A DNA stretch of 64,000 nt from a virus: UHGV virus genome UHGV-1440165; one strand, written 5' to 3'. Position numbers and translations under genes: made by a program. The notes below the pieces were generated by a model. That model saw only the letters and a program-made list of their open reading frames with translations, was not told the origin of the DNA and searched no databases. Below, piece by piece: positions 24,587-30,287 of the stretch. How positions within the stretch are numbered: position 1 is the first letter of the stretch; each line of letters opens with the position of its first letter.

Positions 24587-24643
24587 TGTCCTTTCCTTTC
24601 GGTGAATAATGAGCAAAATTATATGCCTTTATTTTGTATTGAC

Positions 24644-24997
24644 TTACGACAGCTGCTTCAGTTTGTAGATCGTCTGATAACACAGCGTCTTGATTTCATC
24701 AAGCGTGTTCTGAAGGTGGGAGTCACACTGCCTGTAGATGCCATCGACGTCTATCACCACGCTGTTGACATAGGAGATAGGGTCTGGGTTATAGAGCTTG
24801 ATGTTCTCAAACGACGGAACGTACTGGCCACCCGCACCGATGTATGCTTCGGTAAACGTGTCCAGCAAGTCCTCCAGTTCCCCGTAGAACTCCCCGAGAG
24901 CTTTGTGCTTGGCGTAGGACGTTGTAACGAAGTGCAGGGCATGAGAGTGGGCTATAGCAAGCAGTCCACGGTTGATGAAAATACTCGCGTTAACCAT
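24644..24997 (-). CDS. hypothetical protein (117 aa)
   Basis: ORF. Confidence 0.45.
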   Translation of the reverse strand: MVNASIFINRGLLAIAHSHALHFVTTSYAKHKALGEFYGELEDLLDTFTEAYIGAGGQYVPSFENIKLYNPDPISYVNSVVIDVDGIYRQCDSHLQNTLDEIKTLCYQTIYKLKQLS

Positions 24998-25086
24998 GAT
25001 TTGTTTCCTGTATTGTGAACCATCTAGTATTTAGTGTTAATGGGTCCATGAGGTACTATATAGAATAATATAACTGGAGAACGAAA

Positions 25087-25692
25087 ATGAAAACTTTTCA
25101 AGACTTTCTGACCGAAGCCGCGCCGCCGATGTTTGTTCATATCAAGGCAGACAAGATCGGCAAATCCACCGAAGACAATATCGGTACTTTCTTGCGAGTT
25201 AGTGTTAGTGGCGACAAAGCCACCTTTGAAACCCCTGACGGTCGCAAGATAATCCTGACGGGTGCTAAAGACATCATCTCGGCATCTGGCCTGAAAGATG
25301 GGCAGTTTGCCAGTGCCCAGATGATTGACAAGGTTGATACTGACACCGCTGTCAAGTACAACAAATCAGGCAAATATATTGACTTGTTGGATGTCAAATC
25401 AGGTATGGGTAATTCCTTTATCTCCATTGACGGTAACAAGCAATGGAAAGAAATGACCGAAGGTGGTTGGTATGCGTATAAAGGCGGTCGCCCCGGCTTG
25501 GCTCGTTATAAGATCGCTATGGTTATGGGACCTCATGCGGGTATGCCATCTCCTGGGGAAGATATTGAATACGAGTTACCGAATGGCGGCAAAGAACGCG
25601 GAACCGTCATGAAACTGAATGGTGCATCCAAGCTGATGGATGTCAAAAACGAAAAAGGTAAGAAAGTACAAGTCAGTATGTATGTGAAATAA
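25087..25692 (+). CDS. putative internal head protein with T4 IP-like capsid-targeting N-terminus
   Basis: N-terminus MKTFQDFLTEA resembles T4 internal-protein CTS (MKTYQEFIAEA) with LxE protease-site-like motif; K/G-rich; terminator downstream. Confidence 0.45.
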   Translation: MKTFQDFLTEAAPPMFVHIKADKIGKSTEDNIGTFLRVSVSGDKATFETPDGRKIILTGAKDIISASGLKDGQFASAQMIDKVDTDTAVKYNKSGKYIDLLDVKSGMGNSFISIDGNKQWKEMTEGGWYAYKGGRPGLARYKIAMVMGPHAGMPSPGEDIEYELPNGGKERGTVMKLNGASKLMDVKNEKGKKVQVSMYVK

Positions 25693-25694
25693 CA

Positions 25695-25722
25695 AAACCC
25701 CGCGAAAAGCGGGGTTTATTTT
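25695..25722 (+). terminator. rho-independent terminator (AAACCCCGCGAAAAGCGGGGTTT + ATTTT)
   Basis: Stem-loop plus T-run. Confidence 0.7.
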
Positions 25723-25752
25723 ACGACTCACCCGGTTGCAAAGTTCACCCTT

Positions 25753-26322
25753 CTACACAGGCTTGACGCCGAGGAACTTGGCGATATCAGCAGCCAGGTT
25801 TTTACCCTTGCTGATGTCGTGTTCTTTACCGCCGACAGTAACGATTACATATGGATCGTCTTCACCGCCGAAGTTCACAGACACAGCCTTACCATGGCCA
25901 GGGATGCCAGAGTATTCGAACTCAGTACGACCACTCTTGCGAGACTTGCCAACACCCAGTGCTTTACCGATCATCTTGTCCATGTTCGCCAGTTCCTGAG
26001 CATAGGCTTCAGTCACCTGGCCTTTGTCAGCAGACTTGCCAAAGAAGAATTCGAAACCGTCATGGACAGCAACGACTTCCTGACCTTGGGAGATACCGTG
26101 AGTCTGGTCTGGGGTCAGTTTCACCTTGATGGTGTTGCCGTTGGTTAACTCCAGGTTGTAGACATCCGCCTGATTGTCAGGAGTGATCTGGGTCACGGTA
26201 GCACCGGAGCACCACTGAGTGCCATCGGCCTGTTTGGTGATGGATACGCTTTTGCCTTGGACACCAGCATGGGTCTGAGGCTGTGCAGCTTGCTCTTTAA
26301 AATATTCGATAAAAGGTTTCAT
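25753..26322 (-). CDS. putative internal head protein (CTS-like N-terminus MKPFIEYFKEQ)
   Basis: Start with GGAGAGA RBS; N-terminal motif shared with neighbours. Confidence 0.4.
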   Translation of the reverse strand: MKPFIEYFKEQAAQPQTHAGVQGKSVSITKQADGTQWCSGATVTQITPDNQADVYNLELTNGNTIKVKLTPDQTHGISQGQEVVAVHDGFEFFFGKSADKGQVTEAYAQELANMDKMIGKALGVGKSRKSGRTEFEYSGIPGHGKAVSVNFGGEDDPYVIVTVGGKEHDISKGKNLAADIAKFLGVKPV

Positions 26323-26353
26323 TGGATCTCTCCTCGGGGATTTAGATGTAATT

Positions 26354-26369
26354 AGCCCCCGGAGGGGCT
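26354..26369. terminator. hairpin AGCCCCCGGAGGGGCT between convergent genes
   Basis: Inverted repeat. Confidence 0.4.
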
Positions 26370-26394
26370 TTATTCTGTTCAAGACCAGCTAGTT

Positions 26395-28398
26395 TCACCA
26401 AACATTCAGAAATAGTGCATGACCCATACCGCCGTTTGACTGAAGAGACCATTTTCCTGTTTCTCTTCCCAGGCGTTCTATGTTGTTGAGTTGGTTTATC
26501 GACAATTCAGAAGAGTCGAATAATACCACATCACGTTTTTTGGGTTCTCTCAAATAAGGTCCGAGATCAATATCAATCATCCGGTTTATAAATTCTACTA
26601 CTTCGGCTTGTTTCTTTGGTAATGTGATATCCGGCCTGTTTGTCACTTTCTCCAAGCGTCTATTTTCTGCGCTTATCATGGACAGCATAATTTGTGTAAC
26701 TTTGCCGTCAGACAAGTTGTAATCGTTCCAAATCACTTCACCTTTATCCGTGATGGTTATATCATTCAAGAAAACCTGGTTTGGGTTGTATGTCTGACTT
26801 TTCAACTGTTGGAGGTTTCTGGAAAGATATTCCATTTTTGATGAGATTTCATCGATCATGGATTGAACAATATCTTTCTTCAAAGTAAGTTCATAGGTCT
26901 TCGGATTGTTCAGGGTACGCCCTTTCTGGGAGACAATTGGGGTGAATGCAACTTTGCCTTTGTCATGATAATAGGTTACGTTGGTTATCATAGAAGTACC
27001 GGCATATTTTCCGGTTTCAGGGAAATTGATTCCAGACCAAGTGATGGACATGCCGTTCTCTGTTTCCCCGAACACTGATGCGTTTTTCGGGATTCGCAGA
27101 TCTTTAGAACTGATTGCATTTGGATTCGGTTCTGCTGCTTTCGCCTGAGGAGCCAACTGATCGATAGCACCCTGTACCACTCCAGTCAATTTGGATGGTT
27201 TGGTGATGTCGATGTCACGGATTACGATAGGCTGGCCGATGGTTTGCCCACCAGGTCCCAATTCTGTAACTGCCTTGACTGTCAAGACAATCGGATCACT
27301 CCCTTTGATGATGCCACGGTTGATTGTGGCCACCACTGCAGATTTACCGCCGAATGTCAAGCTACCAGAGGCCATTGTCATAGAGGATACGCCGCGAAGA
27401 TCATTCACTTTGTAGAATGCGTTCACCAGAGCACGCCAGCGGTCTGTTGTGAGTTCGGCTGCCGTGGTTTGAGCAGGAGCCACAGCCCCAACGCCAAATT
27501 CAACATAAGCCACAATCTTACCACCAGACTTCAGTTCCCAACCCATGCCCTGGCGGTCAGAAGCCGCCATGATTTTGCGATCCACTTCCCCACGACCAAC
27601 ATACTCTTTGTCGAACACAGTTACCTGGGCGATGGTTTGGGTGCGGGCAATCTTCGCCATTGCGCCATCTTTGACCATGATGGCCAGGTCGTTGGAACTC
27701 AGAGTCACATCGTTGGCACCGACCACCTTCACAACAGAACTGAAGATGCCGTTGGATTTTGCCATGACGGAAATGTTCCAGTCTGGATTGTTGGGCGAAG
27801 CCCCCACATCCGGAGTATTGTTCTGAACCGGAACGTCGCCGACCTTGTCTGGATCATCCCAGGTGATGCCCTGCATCTTCGGACCGTCGAATACCTGAGC
27901 CGGATCTTTGCCCTTGCGGACCAGCCACACATAACCACGGTCAGGGACAGGCGCGTAAGTCAGGTCCATGACGTTCAGTTTCTGTTTCAAACCAGACTGA
28001 CGGATGATCTTTGGAATCAGGGTCATACCGCGATCCAGGGCTTTCTTGGAGAAGTTCACAGCATAGCCATCGATAGTCTTGCCAAGAGGAGTCGCCATGA
28101 ATTGTTTGGTCGCTTCGATCATGGAGGCGATGACGCGCATTGGGTTCTTGAAGCGAGCAATAGCGTCAGGGTAGACGGAGCCGCGCTTCTGGCCTATGAA
28201 GACCTGGCGGACATTCTTGCCCAACCCCTGTGGGGTATAGAACTGGATGCGGTATTCTTTTTCATCTTCGTCGATGAAGGTGAAGAACACATCGCCTGCG
28301 TTCTTCTTGCCCATGGTCAGCTCATACGGAGCGGAGTTGAACGCTTCGTCCAACTGATCTCTTTCCTGCATGAACTGGAGGAAACTTGGCTTTGACAT
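26395..28398 (-). CDS. large hypothetical protein (667 aa) with CTS-like N-terminus; candidate capsid-packaged, injected protein
   Basis: N-terminus MSKPSFLQFMQE...LDEAF; size similar to T4 Alt (no catalytic motifs confirmed). Confidence 0.4.
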   Translation of the reverse strand: MSKPSFLQFMQERDQLDEAFNSAPYELTMGKKNAGDVFFTFIDEDEKEYRIQFYTPQGLGKNVRQVFIGQKRGSVYPDAIARFKNPMRVIASMIEATKQFMATPLGKTIDGYAVNFSKKALDRGMTLIPKIIRQSGLKQKLNVMDLTYAPVPDRGYVWLVRKGKDPAQVFDGPKMQGITWDDPDKVGDVPVQNNTPDVGASPNNPDWNISVMAKSNGIFSSVVKVVGANDVTLSSNDLAIMVKDGAMAKIARTQTIAQVTVFDKEYVGRGEVDRKIMAASDRQGMGWELKSGGKIVAYVEFGVGAVAPAQTTAAELTTDRWRALVNAFYKVNDLRGVSSMTMASGSLTFGGKSAVVATINRGIIKGSDPIVLTVKAVTELGPGGQTIGQPIVIRDIDITKPSKLTGVVQGAIDQLAPQAKAAEPNPNAISSKDLRIPKNASVFGETENGMSITWSGINFPETGKYAGTSMITNVTYYHDKGKVAFTPIVSQKGRTLNNPKTYELTLKKDIVQSMIDEISSKMEYLSRNLQQLKSQTYNPNQVFLNDITITDKGEVIWNDYNLSDGKVTQIMLSMISAENRRLEKVTNRPDITLPKKQAEVVEFINRMIDIDLGPYLREPKKRDVVLFDSSELSINQLNNIERLGRETGKWSLQSNGGMGHALFLNVW

Positions 28399-28443
28399 TT
28401 TATATCTCCTGATGGGAATATGGCGGTTTCCCTTAATTAGCGA

Positions 28444-28671
28444 TCAGCCGCGCAATTGATACTGCATGATTCGTGAAAAGCTATCGCTTGTCAGGACGCA
28501 TCCTTCAACGATTTCCACAGAAAGATCCTGATCCACCCGATAACGCTTGCCATTCAAATCAAAGTAAACATAGAAATAACCGCGACGTTCCACCATATCC
28601 AGATTACTGATGCTTGAAACTTCTGGCAATTTGGTGATGATCGACTGAACGATATAAGACAACACATTCAT
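28444..28671 (-). CDS. hypothetical protein
   Basis: Start MNVLSY with AAGGAA RBS. Confidence 0.4.
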   Translation of the reverse strand: MNVLSYIVQSIITKLPEVSSISNLDMVERRGYFYVYFDLNGKRYRVDQDLSVEIVEGCVLTSDSFSRIMQYQLRG

Positions 28672-28693
28672 GATATAGTTCCTTCGGTTCAAA

Positions 28694-28927
28694 TTAAAGA
28701 GAGGCTTCAGATTTCACAACAGCTACCAGGGCGGCAATTTTCTTGCTGCTGGTAATCTTTTTACGGCTACCCTGGTTGCCCGCTTTCGGGGTGTTCAGCT
28801 GTACTACTGGGGTGTCAGTCTCGGCACCGTAAACGTGGTAAAAACCTTCACCTTCAACAGTAAATGTAGCGTGGGAAGCAAAGCGGCTAACTGCTGGTAC
28901 AAAGTAAAAACCGGTTACTGTAGTCAT
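28694..28927 (-). CDS. hypothetical protein (78 aa)
   Basis: Start MTTVTG with AAGGAA RBS; own promoter. Confidence 0.45.
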   Translation of the reverse strand: MTTVTGFYFVPAVSRFASHATFTVEGEGFYHVYGAETDTPVVQLNTPKAGNQGSRKKITSSKKIAALVAVVKSEASL

Positions 28928-29034: not shown

Positions 29035-29673
29035 TTACGGTGTTGGGTTCACAACAGGAATATGGAATCTGATTCCAGCGATGATGTCCTTCAGCTGAGG
29101 TTTCCAGCCAGCCACCAAGCGAGGGAGAGCGACAGAACCGGGCTGAACTAAAATGATGTCGCTGCCTGTGATGTTGTGCTGAGGGAATTGGGCAAGATAT
29201 TGCTCCATTGTGACGCCCGGATCAATCAGAACAGGACCAACATCAGATGATGCATAAGTCGCACCCAGACCGTCAACACCCCATGCCAAGATACCCCAGT
29301 CAGGGATGTTGGCTTCAGATGTGATGGTGAACCCAAACACGGTGTTCAGCGAGGTGAAGGAGTAGACGTCGTGAGTGATGTCATACACCAGATACCCCTT
29401 GGCCAGCATATCGGCAAAGATCGCGTCTGTGTCTCCCGCCGCTGGAGTCGGTACGGTAAACAACAGCTCACCAGCCGGAGGAACAGGATACGTGCCGAGG
29501 GCATAGAGGCACCATGCGTCAATGCACTTCTTAATGAATGTCTCTGACGCCACATAATCGGCAAGGCGAACCGTGCCTGAGTACTCGGATACGATGATGC
29601 CTTCCTTCGCGCCCTGTAGAGCAATGAAGACCAAGATATGTTCATATCCGGTCTGGGATGGAGTGATGTTCAT
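29035..29673 (-). CDS. hypothetical protein (212 aa)
   Basis: ORF. Confidence 0.5.
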   Translation of the reverse strand: MNITPSQTGYEHILVFIALQGAKEGIIVSEYSGTVRLADYVASETFIKKCIDAWCLYALGTYPVPPAGELLFTVPTPAAGDTDAIFADMLAKGYLVYDITHDVYSFTSLNTVFGFTITSEANIPDWGILAWGVDGLGATYASSDVGPVLIDPGVTMEQYLAQFPQHNITGSDIILVQPGSVALPRLVAGWKPQLKDIIAGIRFHIPVVNPTP

Positions 29674-30287
29674 TATCTTGTCCTCTTCAGTTTCTCTATT
29701 GTGCGCTTGTTCATGGCGATCACCTGAGGGTCCACCTCAGAGATTGAGCGCCCTTTGAAGGACACACATTTCTGAAGATATTTAGCTTTCTTCACGACGT
29801 CAGCAGCATATGCATTGGACGCAGAATTACGGGCGAAGCCAGCATTGTACGAGGAGAGGGATTTGCGGACATTCTGTTTGTGATAGGTCAACCAGAACTG
29901 CATCTCATCGAGGGCGGCCTGAGCAGCATATTCCTGATCAGTCAGCAGCTTGACAGCAACATTGGCATAACACTTGCGATTCTTACAACCTTCGCGATCA
30001 CCAACAGTCTTCACCTTATTCTGAAAGGCTCCCATGTTGGCCGCCTTGAGGCCGTATCGCATTGACACTACATCTTCACCAGCGCGGCTCTCTCGCCAGG
30101 ATATGGCAGCCAGGGTGTAACCAAGATCTTGTGTCTTGCCTATGTGATAGGCAGTTGCCAGCGTATTAAGTTGTTGCTCAGAGAAATCATAAACACATTG
30201 ACTTGTATTTTGGGAAGCGTGCACATTCCCGCTGGCAATGGTAAAGGTCACGGATAAGGCCATGGCCTTCAACGTTGTCATCGTCAT
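29673..30287 (-). CDS. secreted protein with signal peptide; possible transglycosylase-like fold
   Basis: N-terminal signal peptide (cleavage near VHA-S); WRES motif; function uncertain. Confidence 0.4.
   Translation of the reverse strand: MTMTTLKAMALSVTFTIASGNVHASQNTSQCVYDFSEQQLNTLATAYHIGKTQDLGYTLAAISWRESRAGEDVVSMRYGLKAANMGAFQNKVKTVGDREGCKNRKCYANVAVKLLTDQEYAAQAALDEMQFWLTYHKQNVRKSLSSYNAGFARNSASNAYAADVVKKAKYLQKCVSFKGRSISEVDPQVIAMNKRTIEKLKRTR

Follow-up and report, generated by a model that had tools for sequence, protein, structure and literature searches.

Three adjacent genes with T4-type capsid targeting leaders in an Agtrevirus-like phage: candidate internal head proteins of the Ackermannviridae

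Results

Three neighbouring genes in the 64,000-nucleotide stretch of virus genome UHGV-1440165 analysed here (hereafter the window) encode proteins that begin like the internal proteins of phage T4, i.e. with a short leader resembling the T4 capsid targeting sequence (CTS): a 201-residue accessory protein (25087–25692, + strand), a 189-residue protein (25753–26322, - strand) and a 667-residue protein (26395–28398, - strand). We put at roughly three chances in four the proposal that, in Ackermannviridae, these genes correspond to the internal-protein (Ip/Alt) system of T4, their products being packaged by means of the leader, cleaved and ejected with the DNA. All three open reading frames (ORFs) were found at the coordinates given by an earlier, sequence-only reading of this DNA, each with a plausible ribosome-binding site; the 189-residue protein starts at the ATG at 26322, which has a GAGGAG ribosome-binding site and agrees with the annotated 189-residue homologues, the mechanical ORF extending to a TTG at 26382. 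A megablast search with region 24600–28800 retrieved 255 phage records, all of the Ackermannviridae type, the closest (~95% identity) being the Agtrevirus phages ChubbyThor, MK-13 and SKML-39 and some Salmonella phages. Judged by this similarity, the window, with a G+C content of ~50% like that of ChubbyThor, is an Agtrevirus-like Ackermannviridae (ViI-like) genome.

The leaders read MKTFQDFLTEA (201-residue protein), MKPFIEYFKEQ (189-residue protein) and MSKPSFLQFMQERDQLDEAF (667-residue protein), to be compared with MKTYQEFIAEA for T4 IPII and IPIII and MKTFKEFTSTTTPVSTITEA for IPI (translated from NC_000866), and with MKTFKEFATK..., MKTYQEFISEA and MKTFKEFINEA for Ip5, Ip9 and Ip7 of phage RB32. 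The specificity of this resemblance was assessed with a loose leader pattern (^M.{0,4}[FYW]..[FYW][ILMVF].E) applied to candidate starts from ORFs of at least 50 residues on both strands. Among the 1,901 candidate starts of the window, the pattern picked out these three genes only, the one additional match being an internal GTG of the 667-residue ORF. Applied to the complete genome of MK-13 (158,755 bp; 5,627 candidate starts), it retrieved five annotated genes, four of them adjacent (gp120–gp123); the remaining matches are one GTG inside gp123 and two false starts in other regions. The exact T4 register (MK.[FY]..[FY][ILFVM].E), expected ~0.01 times per 1,901 starts by our own estimate from rough amino-acid frequencies, is present in two of the window genes, and the 667-residue protein displays the same motif offset by two residues. 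On these counts, with the three matches adjacent in the window and those in MK-13 clustered, chance does not account for the resemblance. Note that the fifth MK-13 gene, gp207 (L005:10512-10709, - strand), encodes a 65-residue protein (MKTFGDFIAEW...) and lies among tRNA genes, a location reminiscent of T4 ipI and of RB32 Ip5-Ip9-Ip7, which adjoin the tRNA cluster.

In T4, the first 10 residues of IPIII are sufficient for packaging, and within the CTS residues 4 and 7 are the main determinants of targeting, residues 8 and 10 those of processing (PMC9026906). The window proteins have both the targeting determinants (F4/F7 in the 201-residue protein, F4/Y7 in the 189-residue protein and, offset by two, F6/F9 in the 667-residue protein) and the processing determinants (L8/E10, F8/E10, and M10/E12 plus L16/E18|A19, respectively). 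The predicted leaders thus comprise residues 1–10 of the 201-residue protein (MKTFQDFLTE|A, 25087–25116), residues 1–10 of the 189-residue protein (MKPFIEYFKE|Q, 26293–26322) and residues 1–18 of the 667-residue protein (MSKPSFLQFMQERDQLDE|A; 28345–28398, - strand). The last combines a CTS-like F-L-x-F-[MLI]-x-E with a canonical L-x-E|A (L-D-E|A), which is the sole [LIVMF]-x-E-[ASGQTN] site near this N-terminus. In T4, an E10D substitution stops processing and leaves targeting in place.

The leaders are retained in homologues. The 189-residue protein (phrog_4048; predicted mature form of 179 residues, isoelectric point (pI) 6.2) has homologues with at least 60% identity in 277 phage records, from enterobacterial-type hosts and with genomes of ~150–160 kb; its leader, conserved across the family, takes the forms MKTFLEFFTEQ, MKSFIQYFNEQ or MKKFSEFLVEQ in different genera, so that residues 3, 5, 6 and 9 vary and F4, Y/F7, F/L8 and E10 are constant. 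In 17 homologues of the 667-residue protein, F6, L7, F9, E12, Q15, L16, D17, E18 and A19 are invariant, and M1, K2, F4, L8, E10 and A11 are kept in five homologues of the 201-residue protein (61–79% identical overall). In these alignments, the leader is conserved at the protein level, the positions that are functional in T4 being kept and the others varying. A fixed gene order was found in 21 related loci, namely the large protein, the 189-residue protein, zero to two small leader-bearing genes and a DUF5856 protein. When the ORFs occupying the small-gene slot of these loci were listed irrespective of the pattern, every one was headed by a leader, including one-residue-longer variants MKGFQDFLLKEA that the pattern had missed; the same leader thus precedes cargos of 79, 80, 142, 160 and 201 residues. 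The sequence-only reading had proposed that the three neighbours carry T4 CTS-like N-termini, and had named as counter-evidence a similarity that is not kept in homologues: the exact ORFs, the specificity of the pattern and the T4 determinants bear out the proposal, and the alignments across related loci, with a leader conserved in all three families, contradict the counter-evidence.

Relatives of the window encode head proteins of the T4 type. The head module of MK-13 encodes a Peptidase_S77 protein (2e-30), a T4_CASP scaffold (5e-44), Gp23 and Portal_T4, and T4-type head proteins are also identified in relatives by PHROGs matches and in the SH19 table; all these genes are located outside the window. 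The major capsid protein of MK-13 can be aligned with gp23* (mature) of T4 and has a possible processing site at L49-G50-E51|S52; a search for a solved Ackermannviridae capsid, which would give the mature N-terminus, returned T4-type structures only, and this site stays a candidate.

Homologues of the window proteins are found in virions. In LIMEstone1, the proteins reported as confirmed structural include ORF078, ORF080, ORF081, ORF082 and ORF085, with 23 peptides and 55% coverage for ORF081, and the authors made no functional prediction for the cluster (PMC3296691). In our mapping, ORF078 is the DUF5856 protein, ORF080 the 189-residue protein, ORF081 and ORF082 together the large protein, and ORF085 a DUF7270 protein. 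Virions of Sajous1 purified on caesium chloride (CsCl) yielded 196 spectra for gp214, a top-five protein, 32 for gp215, 20 for gp216 and 10 for gp217 (PMC10892097), which correspond to the large protein, the 189-residue protein, a 79-residue leader-bearing protein and the DUF5856 protein, respectively. The 667- and 189-residue types are therefore represented in virions in two studies, and the 79-residue protein in Sajous1 only.

The leader of the 667-residue protein is followed by a near-invariant N-terminal domain (residues ~19–190; 27829–28344, - strand), nearly all columns of which are invariant over three genera; we propose that it may serve as a carrier or as a head anchor. Used as query in an exhaustive phmmer search, residues 1–200 retrieved, besides one 50-residue fragment, 90 representative clusters of proteins of 306–1677 residues, in which the domain is N-terminal throughout. 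In 84 of 89 clusters, the boundary directly before the N-domain has the form [L 59, I 15, F 6, V 2, M 1, Y 1]-x-E|[A 68, S 15, G 1], behind leaders of 4–45 residues. Among 57 distant members, six carry ADPrib_exo_Tox, which is the catalytic domain of T4 Alt, one an anthrax lethal-factor-type (ATLF) domain and one a DinI-like domain. One of the ADP-ribosyltransferase members adjoins genes for Gp23, T4_CASP, Peptidase_S77 and portal proteins; from its length, which matches cluster P0064, we would guess that the 516-residue neighbour of this member, devoid of Pfam match, is a second member of the family. Note that the gene for the 1677-residue member (L033:6001-11034) is flanked by those for a DnaB-type helicase and a DNA ligase, and that the phage concerned also codes for a 5-hmdU DNA kinase-type protein; T4 alt likewise adjoins DNA ligase (gene 30).

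The relation of this domain to T4 Alt, which sheds a 7-residue N-propeptide (PMC9026906), is less clear-cut. A Pfam search revealed no ADP-ribosyltransferase domain (PF03496) in the 667-residue protein, which therefore falls outside the Alt family; precomputed tables list no match of this protein to the Alt N-terminal family PF26846 and no Pfam match at all for its N-domain. Comparing the family profile with the N-terminus of T4 Alt (hhalign, three Alt relatives) gave a probability of 55% (P = 1.2e-4) over 163 collinear columns starting from the cleavage site, and an hmmsearch comparison gave 9.7 bits, again collinear; a single-sequence hhalign comparison was uninformative. On these profile comparisons, the N-domain is likely, but not proven, to be related to the Alt N-terminus.

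Beyond the N-domain, the homologues of the large protein form a block mosaic of 535–975 residues with two alternative C-termini. In the window, this part (residues ~191–667 and the stop codon; 26395–27828, - strand) consists of a hypervariable middle and ends with one of the two alternative modules. The latter contains residues 604–664 (26407–26589, - strand), which match phrog_7673, ‘internal head protein’ (E = 2e-8), and which are 43% identical to residues 30–89 of RB32 Ip9 (pairwise E = 6e-13). A tblastn search with this Ip9-like module retrieved 136 records below 60% identity; the matches listed are to T-even-type phages only, and several of these records are annotated as Ip9 or internal head protein. 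Cargo modules of the small leader-bearing proteins are also present in large family members. A polyprotein with internal leaders was considered for the 667-residue protein and rejected, as the shared modules are devoid of a preceding leader-like sequence. Two relatives show further variation: in the allotria large protein (allotria_82, L001:8028-8119), an annotated repeat duplicates the peptide ASDGKTIFGSINTN in the variable region, a sign of ongoing rearrangement, and in LIMEstone1 the N-domain (ORF081, 163 residues) and the C-terminal part (ORF082, 375 residues) are encoded separately with a 23-nt overlap (L035:6416-8012), which could reflect a frameshift, due to sequencing or programmed, or else a genuine split after which the part devoid of a leader is packaged all the same.

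These results bear on the remaining claims of the earlier reading. It had noted prohead-protease-like L/F-x-E sites, and we find a hydrophobic-x-Glu motif in all three leaders and the L-x-E|A boundary in 84 of 89 clusters; its expectation that such proteins are packaged in virions agrees, for the 667- and 189-residue types, with the homologues detected in purified virions in two studies; and its T4-like interpretation gains from the T4-type protease and scaffold of the family and from the homology of the 667-residue C-terminus to Ip9. Its comparison of the 667-residue protein with Alt, based on size, stands in part: the N-domain family includes Alt-type ADP-ribosyltransferase members and matches Alt weakly but collinearly, while the window protein itself is without that domain.

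The small-gene slot differs between phages, genes for proteins of 79, 80, 142 or 160 residues coming and going at this single place. The 201-residue protein (predicted mature form of 191 residues, pI 9.3) is found in 15 of the ~277 records, is coded on the opposite strand, and has an SH3/Tudor-like β-barrel at its C-terminal end; phages with all three genes include MK-13, FEC14 and Gloob. It has in common with the 79/160-residue family the leader and a C-terminal SH3-like barrel of ~48 residues (29% identity, pairwise E = 7e-5; TM 0.6 over 66 columns in a comparison in BFVD), but differs from it in the middle part; the slot cargos are therefore not all fully unrelated. We propose that the 201-residue protein is a rare exchangeable cargo of the slot. 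The hyperplastic ip loci of T-even phages present the same picture (PMC12373910, PMC9026906).

Searches of Pfam, PHROGs and PDB sequences gave nothing usable on the function of the three proteins. More specifically, a Pfam TOBE match in the 189-residue protein is below the gathering threshold (17 bits for a cut-off of 22.3), and this protein matches no solved structure at E <= 0.6.

On one side, the slot is bordered by the 117-residue, ferritin/Dps-like DUF5856 protein (24644–24997, - strand; Pfam 8.8e-30), which has no leader and whose homologues are annotated ‘starvation-inducible transcriptional regulator’ in relatives. A G+C-rich hairpin between A and T runs (25695–25717), which a consensus scan flagged as a pattern match only, separates the convergent 201- and 189-residue genes and is likely a bidirectional terminator. 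A second G+C hairpin, between the large gene and the 189-residue gene, is conserved (26340–26370, - strand, in the window; L035:6370-6400 in LIMEstone1). A perfect T4 late-promoter box, TATAAATA, comes after it in LIMEstone1, upstream of the 189-residue gene; the window counterpart is degenerate (AATTACAT), and the T4 late-promoter consensus was not found near the three leader genes of the window. Beyond the large gene lie a 212-residue DUF7270 protein (29035–29673, - strand) and a 204-residue protein (29673–30287, - strand). The latter is called ‘RegB endoribonuclease’ in relatives, a label that is probably wrong. It scores 21.0 bits for an SLT lytic-transglycosylase match with a cut-off of 21.3, its N-terminus is signal-peptide-like, and 31 spectra from purified Sajous1 virions belong to its homologue gp211. 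Since the DUF7270 homologue of LIMEstone1, ORF085, is a confirmed structural protein, region 24.6–30.3 kb forms a second and scattered group of genes for virion proteins, distant from the main structural module.

Discussion

In the scheme that we favour, each of the three proteins would be a late product bearing a short leader at its N-terminus, which would dock it on the T4-type scaffolding core during prohead assembly. A gp21-type prohead protease (Peptidase_S77) would cut the leader after the Glu of the hydrophobic-x-Glu site, giving predicted mature N-termini at A11 (201-residue protein), Q11 (189-residue protein) and A19 (667-residue protein, AFNSAPYE...), and the mature proteins would be kept in the filled head until infection, when they would leave together with the DNA. 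The 189-residue protein would be a conserved component of the family, the neighbouring slot would supply exchangeable small cargos, and the 667-residue protein would act as a carrier, in which the conserved N-domain is fused to shuffled cargo modules, one of them Ip9-like. We infer docking, leader cleavage, location in the head interior, injection and activity. As to activity, T4 Ip1–3, which have only the leader in common, are inhibitors of GmrSD type IV restriction enzymes, a different one for each protein (PMC12373910); by analogy with them and with Alt, the most likely targets of the variable cargos would be host defences or host machinery, at the very start of infection. Because the DNA of Ackermannviridae carries a hypermodified thymidine, 5-NeOmdU (PMC11721090), modification-dependent defences would be a reasonable target class. 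Alternatively, the conserved 189-residue protein and the N-domain may have a structural or carrier role.

Several points weigh against this scheme. (i) Leader cleavage is a prediction from sequence, the residue following the cut in the 189-residue family is Gln instead of the Ala of T4 IPII and IPIII, and the window stops just short of the prohead protease gene, which is deduced from relatives. (ii) Mass spectrometry of virions shows presence in the preparations, not place inside the head; the phages studied, LIMEstone1 and Sajous1, are without the 201-residue gene, and the Sajous1 authors took the cluster as tail-associated (PMC10892097). (iii) The strong conservation of the 189-residue protein is unlike that of an arms-race effector. 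(iv) Structure prediction assigns no activity: the AF2 model of the 667-residue protein is poor (mean pLDDT 51.5) and uninformative, and the model of the 201-residue protein matches only generic SH3/Tudor barrels. (v) The table of leader invariance is partly circular, the sequences having been chosen with the pattern, a concern eased by the slot listing, which took every ORF regardless of pattern.

In another reading, which we consider unlikely though still to be reckoned with, the proteins are packaged through their leaders but are internal structural parts of the head rather than injected effectors, i.e. core or scaffold accessories or DNA-condensing proteins comparable to T4 gp67, gp68 and perhaps IPIII. 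It applies above all to the 189-residue protein, present at 60% identity or more in all 277 records, and to the almost invariant N-domain, and it would fit the high spectral count of the large protein (196) and the basic character of the mature 201- and 667-residue proteins (pI ~9.3). However, the hypervariable mosaic C-terminus of the large protein and the small-gene slot follow the pattern of accessory or conflict genes, members of the family carry toxin-type enzyme domains (ADPrib_exo_Tox, ATLF), and T4 proteins with such a leader are ejected (PMC9026906, PMC12373910). Note that, for some of the proteins, this explanation is compatible with that of an Ip/Alt-like system and not strictly exclusive of it.

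We find very improbable the published interpretation of the Sajous1 cluster as tail-associated proteins of a ‘ferrojan horse’ entry system (PMC10892097). It draws on the recovery of all four proteins from CsCl-purified virions and on Phyre2 predictions of a ferritin for gp217 (96.7% confidence) and of BiMOP for gp215 (63%) (PMC10892097), to which the weak TOBE match of the window 189-residue protein could be added. That match, however, falls short of the Pfam cut-off; the designation of gp214 as ‘tail completion’ is unsupported, this protein being hypothetical in GenBank and without Pfam match; and TonB and FeoB mutants are normally infected (PMC10892097). Moreover, the T4-type leaders, the L-x-E|A boundary and the Ip9 homology are left unaccounted for; the ferritin-like DUF5856 protein, being leaderless, may be handled differently. 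Finally, we give almost no credit to the idea that the N-terminal resemblance was produced by chance or by some other constraint, for example on the mRNA or on translation initiation, unrelated to head targeting: the motif spans only ~10 residues, T4 and Ackermannviridae are distant relatives and the 667-residue leader is two residues out of register, but there are three adjacent matches among 1,901 starts and five annotated genes, four adjacent, in MK-13, the T4-functional positions are kept at the protein level while others vary, and the homologues are virion proteins.

Returning to the Ip/Alt-like scheme, a broader conjecture, to which we give somewhat less than an even chance, is that the N-domain marks a large unannotated carrier family, possibly a wider Alt-N superfamily of phages with T4-type heads, which would inject swappable effectors after removal of the L-x-E|A leader and which, in Ackermannviridae, would be tuned against defences recognising hypermodified-thymidine DNA. 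Among the modules observed are an ADP-ribosyltransferase, a lethal-factor-like protease, an Ip9-like and an SH3-like module, the same modules also occurring free-standing behind a short leader. If this is true, the N-domain family is a polymorphic injected-effector system of phages.

The mechanism itself is already known from T4; the novelty lies in its occurrence in a phage family other than that of T4, as well as in the cargos and the carrier family. We found no description of such leaders for Ackermannviridae in the literature on ‘capsid targeting sequence’, subscription journals being outside the coverage, and a 2024 review of the family is without the terms ‘internal’, ‘injected’, ‘ejected’, ‘anti-defen…’ and ‘prohead’ (PMC11721090). 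The phages concerned (ViI, CBA120, LIMEstone and relatives) are among those most used for biocontrol or detection of Salmonella, E. coli O157, Shigella, Klebsiella and Dickeya. In this family, widely used for biocontrol, the leaders mark a cluster of likely injected proteins that changes fast and has been overlooked. T4-type head targeting provides a short list of candidate injected effectors, which could help account for host-range differences that are not due to tailspikes, and the published ‘ferrojan horse’ tail operon would be re-read as a cluster of head-packaged proteins. The leader could also serve as a handle for loading foreign proteins into these phages, as done with T4, and together with the L-x-E|A-F-N-S boundary it offers an annotation rule for ~90 clusters of large unannotated phage proteins.

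Comparison with known systems

Other head-packaged effector carriers include the MuF-domain polymorphic toxins and the Dar proteins of phage P1; the ‘polyvalent proteins’, reportedly described by Iyer et al. in 2017, are said to be such carriers too. In phiKZ and SPN3US, ejection proteins are processed after Glu by a gp21-related protease (PMC5694885, PMC9026906). All these systems resemble the present one in that a conserved N-terminal part, for packaging, is joined to effector modules that vary and are C-terminal. They differ from it in that no sequence or fold relation was detected and in that the targeting signal here is a T4-type leader.

T4 Alt, a head-packaged and injected ADP-ribosyltransferase with the N-terminal domain PF26846, is similar to the 667-residue protein in size, in its short N-propeptide ending in hydrophobic-x-Glu and in the succession of an N-terminal domain and an effector part; in addition, ADPrib_exo_Tox is present in distant members of the window N-domain family, which shows the weak, full-length collinear profile match to the Alt N-terminus. 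The differences are the absence of an ADP-ribosyltransferase domain from the window protein, the lack of a PF26846 match and an N-domain homology standing at 55% probability. With Ip9 (RB32 ORF140c, 90 residues), the similarity concerns residues 604–664 of the 667-residue protein, which are 43% identical to its mature part; in T-even phages, however, Ip9 is free-standing directly behind a 10-residue CTS, whereas here it is a C-terminal module of a multi-module protein.

A further parallel is provided by the internal proteins of T4 and the T-even phages (Ip1/IPI, Ip2/IPII, Ip3/IPIII and Ip4–Ip10) and their CTS, reportedly described by Repoila et al. in 1994 and by Mullaney and Black in 1996. 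The phage family is not the same (Straboviridae there, Ackermannviridae here), the window cargos are without sequence similarity to Ip1, Ip2 and Ip3, and one member here, the 189-residue protein, is a conserved core gene of the family. T-even DNA carries glucosyl-hmC as opposed to the hypermodified thymidine of the present phages, and because of this difference GmrSD-type targets are not to be assumed here. The two systems are otherwise alike in their 10-residue leader, MK-x-[F/Y]-x-[D/E]-[F/Y]-[L/I/F]-x-E, in the presence in the phage (here in relatives) of a Glu-specific T4-type prohead protease, and in the attachment of this leader to otherwise unrelated cargos that are encoded in a hypervariable locus and found, here for homologues of some of them, in the virion.

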